Below, piece after piece: positions 2,495-2,734 of a stretch of DNA of 4,159 nt. The position numbers and the translations under genes are program-made. The notes beneath the pieces are model-generated. The model did not search any database, was not told where the DNA came from, and saw only the letters and a program-made list of their open reading frames with translations. The DNA is from Escherichia coli (lineage in GTDB: Bacteria > Pseudomonadota > Gammaproteobacteria > Enterobacterales > Enterobacteriaceae), in assembly GCF_003334255.1 (NCBI RefSeq), contig NZ_QOWU01000110.1; one strand, written 5' to 3'. How positions within the stretch are numbered: position 1 is the stretch's first letter; the number at the start of each line of letters is the position of its first letter.

Positions 2495-2734
2495 TTGTAT
2501 CGTCCGCTCGCCGCAGTCCCAGCGACCGAGCGTTAGCGAGCGAGTGGGCGAGGAAGCGGAAGTGAATCCGTCGCCTGATTGAGCACATACGCACGGTTTT
2601 TCGGGAGGTGATATGCGCTGAACCCGCATGAATACTGGATTTCCACAGGGTTGGAGGGGGTGTATTCGGAACTTGCAATTCTGCTTTTTTGCAACGCATT
2701 GTTTTTATTGGTTTTTTGTTTTCAGCACTCCAAG

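Follow-up and report, generated by a model that had tools for sequence, protein, structure and literature searches.

A candidate auxiliary DnaA box at the left border of the pSC101-type iteron origin of a pIGWZ12-type Escherichia coli plasmid

Does the replication origin of a small Escherichia coli plasmid end, on its left side, at the perfect DnaA box located at 2735–2743, or does it reach further outwards to a weaker DnaA-box-like site at 2639–2647? The question arises from the first-pass annotation of the window, the whole 4,159-nucleotide stretch of DNA that was analysed, in which the weaker site and the T-rich tracts that follow it were suggested to extend the origin into a two-box DnaA site with intrinsically bent DNA. 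The answer bears on practical work, as pIGWZ12-derived vectors use this origin segment and the true end of the origin matters both for minimal replicons and for plasmid typing.

Bases 1–77 of the window are repeated as bases 4083–4159, revealing a single circular molecule of 4082 bp. This molecule is an entire pIGWZ12-type plasmid of E. coli, with a MOBQ relaxase and a Rep_3 initiator, and it belongs to the MOBQ41 group, of which pIGWZ12 is the prototype. The gene order starts with mobA, encoded on the minus strand up to about position 2070, followed by the oriT region between mobA and mobC, by mobC (2240–2494), by a non-coding region of 530 bp between mobC and rep, and by rep itself on the plus strand (3027–3728), a Rep_3 family initiator gene (Pfam Rep3_N, 1.3e-35; Rep3_C, 9.7e-20). 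Similarly, pIGWZ12 encodes a MobQ relaxase, MobC and a Rep_3 protein of the same family, and in both plasmids the origin lies upstream of rep. The origin region of the window is 100% identical to that of several E. coli plasmids, such as CP077253.1 (MOBQ, rep_cluster_1778), where rep is annotated as a replication initiation protein. Two 4072-bp relatives (L002 and L003) are 88–89% identical to the window across the origin, although these plasmids of 4072 bp differ from the window in their allele of iterons and Rep. Segment 2600–2760 is found in 439 of 5426 complete E. coli genomes (about 8%), while segment 2563–2734 is found in 441 PLSDB records, nearly all of them plasmids of 4.0–4.1 kb from E. 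coli, Salmonella, Shigella and Klebsiella. Outside the origin, the intergenic region between rep and mobA contains three direct 10-nt repeats, GAACATCGA(A/C), at 3915–3950, and a near-consensus DnaA box, TTGTTCACA, is found at 3974–3982. One 3811-bp record labelled complete and circular (CP115337.1, L149) is devoid of window positions 2443–2701, which comprise the end of mobC, the primosome assembly site homolog, the conserved island and the weak box described below. This gap coincides exactly with the start and end of the record, so a natural deletion is improbable and the gap likely stems from the assembly.

The origin displays the pSC101-like order of DnaA box, 13-mer-like repeats, iterons and rep. 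From left to right, a GC-rich homolog of the ColE1-type primosome assembly site, recognised through sequence matches, occupies 2504–2596 on the plus strand and is followed by a conserved island (2617–2653) that contains the weak box at 2639–2647 and ends on the right with ATTTCCACAGGG. A variable stretch (2654–2683) separates the island from a block of T-runs on the plus strand (2684–2723), which is about 30% GC and has a strong T skew. The main DnaA box, TTATCCACA, is a perfect match on the plus strand at 2735–2743. Three T-rich direct repeats of 13/14 bp (repeat family D2; 22–28% GC) extend over 2757–2803 on the plus strand, with GATC at 2764–2767 and 2778–2781; they likely constitute the unwinding element, and the block is kept across clades. 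Between these repeats and the iterons there is an IHF-like site, AAACAAAATGTTA, at 2823–2835 on the plus strand, with a single mismatch, and the alignment places a perfect AATCAATATGTTA at this position in L002. The four 19-bp iterons (2845–2928, plus strand; repeat families D1 and D3) start at 2845, 2866, 2889 and 2910 and are thus spaced by 21–23 bp. The third of them (2889–2907, AGGTGGAGGAATTTAAGGT) is of the type associated with another Rep allele, that of L002 and pEC21Z144-4K, making this a mixed array. An inverted repeat with half-iteron arms, AAAGGCAATGCCTTT, located between the iterons and rep at 2959–2975, probably serves as the operator for Rep; it was also flagged, on the minus strand, in the scan for terminators. 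The assignment to the Rep_3/pSC101 type is consistent with the adjacent Rep_3 gene, with iterons that lie upstream of rep and whose type changes along with the Rep type among relatives, and with AT-rich repeats (2757–2803) that are flanked by TTATCCACA on the side opposite to the iterons.

A third DnaA-box-like site, ATATTCACA, immediately follows the iterons at 2930–2938, about 195 bp from the main box. The origin therefore has three DnaA-box positions, all on the plus strand: the weak one at 2639, the canonical one at 2735, separated from it by 96 bp (about 9 helical turns), and the third at 2930. The third position is occupied in every relative compared (L002, L004, L007, L015, L141, L142 and the Yersinia pestis plasmid pYC), with TTATCCACA, TTATTCACA, TAATCCACA, ATATCCACA, GTATCCACA and AAATCCACA as alleles. 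In L007 and L014 the third box is perfect and the main box is degenerate (TTTTCAACA). The left module of the origin, 2495–2803, is common to plasmids with quite different iterons and Rep, an arrangement of sequences that points to modular recombination near position 2803.

The weak box, ATTTCCACA on the plus strand at 2639–2647, is followed by GGG and matches TTATCCACA at 7 of 9 positions and the relaxed TTWTNCACA at 8 of 9, with position 1 as the sole mismatch to the latter. TTWTNCACA is the accepted DnaA box consensus and the mioC-type box TTTTCCACA binds DnaA well (PMC5835720). The T at position 1 belongs to the stringent DnaA box consensus, and it is there that ATTTCCACA departs from it. 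The sequence TCCACAGG is common to the weak box and to the perfect box at 2735–2743, while the extension of the weak box, CCACAGGG, is the same as that found at R1 of oriC. On these points the first-pass annotation was accurate, as it had correctly placed ATTTCCACA at 2639–2647 with a 7 of 9 match, had recognised the extension shared with the perfect box and had pointed to T-tracts, which are indeed present at 2685–2690, 2702–2706, 2712–2717 and 2719–2722. Nevertheless, within the window alone ATTTCCACA is a chance-level match: window-wide there are 12 sites with no more than two mismatches to the strict box, against 10.8 ± 3.0 expected, and 8 sites with at most one mismatch to TTWTNCACA, against 7.9 expected.

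Conservation within the plasmid family was followed in an alignment of 16 distinct variants, which descend to about 77% identity in 2563–2734. The fraction of invariant columns is 0.90 in 2504–2562, 0.33 in 2563–2616, 0.84 in the island (2617–2653), 0.03 in 2654–2683, 0.45 in the T-run block (2684–2723) and 0.78 in the main box (2735–2743). The decamer TTTCCACAGG (2640–2649) is invariant in all 16 variants and the next 30 bp to its right are almost wholly variable. To its left, the only variable base between TTTCCACAGG and the equally invariant GCATGAATACTGG is position 1 of the weak box, which is A in 13, G in 2 and T in 1 of the 16 variants. The T found in L015 converts the weak box into TTTTCCACA, the mioC-type consensus. 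The weak box and the main box are 96 bp apart in 15 of the 16 variants and 94 bp apart in L007; in L009 a +1 and a −1 indel, both in homopolymer runs, cancel each other, and several of the spacing differences sit in such runs, where sequencing error is possible. The main box is the more variable of the two, appearing as TTATCCACA, TTTTCCACA or, in L007 and L014, the degenerate form mentioned above, and it is followed by an invariant GTTAAGTTTTTA. In one variant (L016, NZ_AP022093.1), which also carries ATTTCCACA at 96 bp, an extra consensus-class box, TTTTTCACA, lies in the T-run block, some 50 bp before the main box.

In PLSDB the island 2617–2653 is restricted to the plasmid family of the window (440 records). 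Neither a change of iterons and Rep (L004, L010 and L011) nor a different MobC (L001, L007 and others) is accompanied by any change in the island. This constancy in the face of different Rep, iterons and MobC indicates that the island is not the site of a plasmid-encoded protein and argues for a host factor; binding of Rep to the island was ruled out on the same grounds.

More distant origins were collected by a tblastn search with Rep and by one DNA-pattern scan of species-representative genomes, and they have a common core formed by the main box, GTTAAGTTTTTA, the GATC repeats, the iterons, the third box and rep. In a clade from Klebsiella, Enterobacter, Serratia and Citrobacter (L141 and L145–147; 18 records, Rep 77% identical), a consensus-class TTATTCACAGGG containing the 9-mer TTATTCACA is located 94–95 bp upstream of TTATCCACA on the same strand, where about 0.007 consensus boxes per 190 upstream positions are expected by chance. 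The spacer of L141 aligns with that of the window (score 5 against −10 ± 4.9, P=0.003), while the 60 nt of its left flank do not (P=0.18). The homology between the window and L141 thus ends at the weak box, as is expected of the outer edge of an origin. Similarly, a plasmid contig of Dickeya undicola (L153) has TTACACACA, with one mismatch at position 4, on the strand of its main box TTTTCCACA and at a distance of exactly 96 bp upstream, its left flank being unrelated to that of the window and its spacer weakly similar (P=0.048). In Yersinia ruckeri pYR8 and in a Symbiopectobacterium plasmid there is only a vestige, GCGCCACAAAG, with a shorter spacer and no T-runs. In pYC a homolog of the assembly site is followed about 77 nt later by a single TTATCCACAGGC, with T-runs just upstream of the latter. 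Altogether, 3 of 5 clades have a box upstream of the main one at a spacing that differs by no more than 2 bp, and its absence from the other 2 makes it a conserved but accessory element that is dispensable in some lineages. Position and orientation relative to the origin are fixed, at 96 bp in 15 of the 16 variants and at 94–96 bp in the L141 and Dickeya clades, and the fit to TTWTNCACA rises from 8 of 9 in ATTTCCACA to full matches in the L015 allele TTTTCCACA and the L141 allele TTATTCACA. Judged by this comparison of sequences, ATTTCCACA stands above chance. Two further loci from the genome scan (L156 and L157) were set aside as DnaA-box clusters of unrelated bacteria and not relatives, and a metagenome search with the pattern CGNNGTTAAGTTTTTA proved too loose, 2 of its 120 loci (L120 and L122) being the plasmid itself.

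We therefore consider it probable, although well short of certain, that 2639–2647 is an auxiliary, presumably low-affinity DnaA box at the left border of a pSC101-type iteron origin. Of the earlier proposal, the second DnaA box, with the origin reaching leftwards to it, is supported by its conservation, by its fixed spacing and orientation and by the boxes of two clades with unrelated left flanks, whereas the bent DNA is not. We infer DnaA binding, IHF binding and an effect on replication from the sequences compared. Several observations weigh against the assignment: the 7 of 9 match is in itself at chance level, GCATGAATACTGG, the 13 bases to the left of the box, is equally invariant and DnaA gives no explanation for it, the pYR8 and Symbiopectobacterium plasmids retain a vestige and pYC a single box, and the Dickeya 9-mer is mismatched at position 4. 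Multiple DnaA boxes in iteron origins are textbook knowledge. For the origin of pIGWZ12, four DnaA boxes are reported in PMC6856555, where the replication of this plasmid is also cited as having been studied; the weak box is thus a known kind of feature. The four published boxes very probably include the equivalent of 2639–2647, because only three same-strand candidates with two mismatches or fewer (2639, 2735 and 2930) are present in the origin region. The detail added here is that this group of iteron plasmids retains an accessory DnaA box whose distance from the main box is fixed at about 9 turns, and that the stretch separating the two includes a conserved element that is T-rich and IHF-like.

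The invariance of the left half of the island opens the way to another explanation, in which the island 2617–2653 serves a different function, as the site of a host DNA-binding protein or as a weak rightward promoter, and its likeness to a DnaA box is incidental or DnaA acts there only on an operator. We regard this as unlikely. GCATGAATACTGG (2626–2638) adjoins the weak box, is invariant in 16 of 16 variants, exactly as the box is, and is not accounted for by DnaA, Rep, a promoter, an ORF or structure. In addition, a GGTGAT located at the distance of a −35 element is also conserved while the bases in between vary, and a rightward candidate promoter can be drawn with GTGATA (2608–2613) as −35 and AATACT (2631–2636) as −10. 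This hand-picked candidate has 8 of 12 matches, however, and the scan for promoters and terminators in 2050–3100 gave no promoter-like site, none reaching 9 of 12, and no terminator near the T-runs; neither a terminator nor a conserved ORF lies downstream of the island. The ORF that starts inside it (2628–2756, 42 amino acids) was rejected, with no Shine-Dalgarno sequence, a length of 8–18 codons in L015 and L007 and a frameshift in L009. Structure is similarly unsupported: the window has no Rfam match, single-strand folds of 2498–2660 on both strands and of 2600–2740 are no better than those of shuffled sequences (z = 0.47, −0.92 and −0.11), and a consensus fold of 8 variants displays no covariation for a hairpin around the weak box. 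Readings of the island as a Xer/cer-like site, an ArgR box or a CRP site were discarded as poor matches by eye. GCATGAATACTGG is absent from the L141 (Klebsiella-type) and Dickeya clades, which keep the box without this left half and without the promoter-like sequence.

The neighbour of the island on its left offers a different partner for the weak box. The homolog at 2504–2596 has its GAAGCGG core at 2553–2559; 2504–2562 has matches in thousands of ColE1-type plasmids, 2504–2594 is also present in 1.5-kb Col(MG828) plasmids, and in a ColE1-type plasmid (L020) RNAI, the origin and a DnaA box precede the matching stretch and rop follows it. We take the ColE1-type region matched by 2504–2596 to be ssiA (n'-pas), so that the element is homologous, on the strand with GAAGCGG, to an experimentally defined assembly site of the phiX174 type. 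DnaA-dependent loading in pBR322 was reportedly described by Seufert and Messer in 1987 and by Parada and Marians in 1991. The role of the primosome assembly site in ColE1 is described in PMC3167613. The weak box could thus work with the assembly site in DnaA-dependent loading of DnaB on displaced or transferred single strands, as in ColE1. The box lies about 80 nt from the GAAGCGG core, the DnaA box of L020 is about 30 nt from the same element and the sole left-hand box of pYC follows it after about 77 nt. Three features nevertheless make such a partnership quite unlikely: L141 and Dickeya have the upstream box and no assembly-site homolog, the weak box keeps a constant 96 bp from the main box, whereas its distance from the assembly site varies beyond the family, and compared with ColE1 the weak box is inverted and on the other side of the element. 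The strand of 2504–2596 is the one exposed by a left-to-right fork or in the transferred plus strand, and a leftward fork from oriV would not expose it; by this strand assignment, a role of the element in complementary-strand priming after conjugation seems more likely than one in the firing of oriV.

It is very unlikely that the site has no function and owes its conservation to recent kinship or to recombination homogenising the segment, with the matches in other clades coincidental. The chance-level statistics within the window and a family that is young and mosaic, with many records at least 95% identical, are what such an explanation can draw upon. Both flanks are, however, heavily diverged in the very same 16 sequences, and three clades with unrelated left flanks keep the box within 2 bp of the same spacing, for which our own estimate of the chance is about 3e-3 per clade.

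The element between the two left boxes was examined for curvature and for protein sites. In the 16-variant alignment the T-runs are conserved as runs while the intervening bases vary. Curvature estimates come from the Bolshoy-Trifonov wedge model with approximate parameters and are themselves approximate: the highest value in the T-run block is 16 degrees per 30 bp, which corresponds to the 91st percentile for a plasmid with a mean of 8.9 and a standard deviation of 5.0, and the net bend of 2634–2748 is 26 degrees, the 43rd percentile, against 25–64 degrees in relatives. The intrinsically bent DNA of the first-pass annotation is therefore not supported, the predicted curvature being ordinary, and the notion that the T-runs, which are conserved and roughly in phase at 2702, 2712 and 2719, form a protein-independent bend juxtaposing the two boxes is highly improbable in view of these local and net values, of a net bend that is not conserved among relatives and of a really curved segment that lies elsewhere on the plasmid, at 3746–3860. 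The latter, with phased A-tracts just downstream of rep, has the highest predicted curvature of the molecule, with a net bend of about 106 degrees in 115 bp.

On the minus strand the T-run block contains an IHF-like core, AAACAATGCGTTG, at 2692–2704, which differs from WATCAANNNNTTR by one mismatch at the T of ATC. A-tracts lie 5' of this core on the same strand (2705–2723), where the sequence immediately 5' reads GAAAACAAAAAACCAATAA, providing the A/T-rich tract that is expected 5' of the core of an IHF site. The combination of IHF-like core and A-tract resembles the layout of lambda H'. The motif at 2692–2704, AAACA[A/G]-N4-TT[G/A] with a variable N4, is found in 16 of 16 variants and in L141. 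Dickeya has AATCAA at the same distance of 36 nt from the main box, but ATA replaces TTR. The core carries a mismatch in every case and also resembles the 13-mer repeats (AAACAAGATCTTA, 2775–2787); read by eye, 2701–2718 is similar to a GATC-less copy of the repeat unit. The conservation of the T-runs would fit either an IHF-like core with its A-tract or a degenerate 13-mer, and both are possible.

With 2639–2647 taken as an auxiliary DnaA box, initiation could proceed as follows. Rep monomers would occupy the iterons and DnaA the canonical box, while the T-rich block between the left boxes would be bound and bent by IHF through the minus-strand core at 2692–2704 and its A-tract; alternatively, the block may simply be a stretch that deforms or unwinds easily. 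From the weak box, DnaA might then contact the DnaA of the main box and the 13-mer-like repeats (2757–2803), the two boxes cooperating over a distance of about 9 helical turns, probably via a protein-induced bend. The DnaA assembly would thereby be stabilised and would help Rep to open the repeats and to load DnaB.

One of the closest counterparts among known systems is the pSC101 origin, reportedly described by Stenzel et al. in 1991. It displays, in the same order and orientation, a TTATNCACAGG box, T-rich repeats with GATC, an IHF-like site, iterons, weak DnaA boxes proximal to rep and a Rep_3 initiator. The outer flank of the pSC101 origin is the par locus, and to our knowledge no second box has been described there about 96 bp outside the strong box. 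pSC101 uses both DnaA and IHF (PMC4980987). How many DnaA boxes there are, where they lie and which way they point is important in the iteron origins RK2 oriV, P1 oriR and F ori2 (PMC4980987), which, like the window, have several DnaA boxes at the outer edge. RK2, P1 and F have close clusters, in contrast to the window, where the left boxes are separated by about 9 turns that include a conserved T-rich element. ColE1 and pBR322 similarly have a DnaA box less than 100 nt from a homologous primosome assembly site (n'-pas, ssiA), although side and orientation of the box are opposite to those of the window and replication depends on an RNA II primer instead of Rep and iterons. Finally, in the left half of E. 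coli oriC the unwinding element is followed by a strong box (R1, TTATCCACAGGG), an IHF-type site and a weaker box of the same orientation (R5M), an order that recurs at the left border of the window if the IHF-like core there is counted as a site. The spacing in oriC is 55 bp against 96 bp in the window, the T-rich strand of the unwinding element is opposite relative to the boxes, and oriC, unlike the window, contains weak sites in close-set arrays and works independently of Rep. The likeness, drawn by analogy, is a lead. Carried to its end, it would make the left border a miniature of the oriC left half, composed of unwinding repeats, strong box, IHF site and weak box, in which IHF folds the DnaA of the weak box onto the repeats and a further host factor sits on GCATGAATACTGG, an elaboration that we put forward as speculative and doubtful. 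Were it true, a Rep-dependent plasmid would have borrowed the chromosomal "ssDUE recruitment" geometry, with the strict 96-bp spacing as its signature, and through the weak site initiation on the plasmid would respond to the level of DnaA-ATP in the host.
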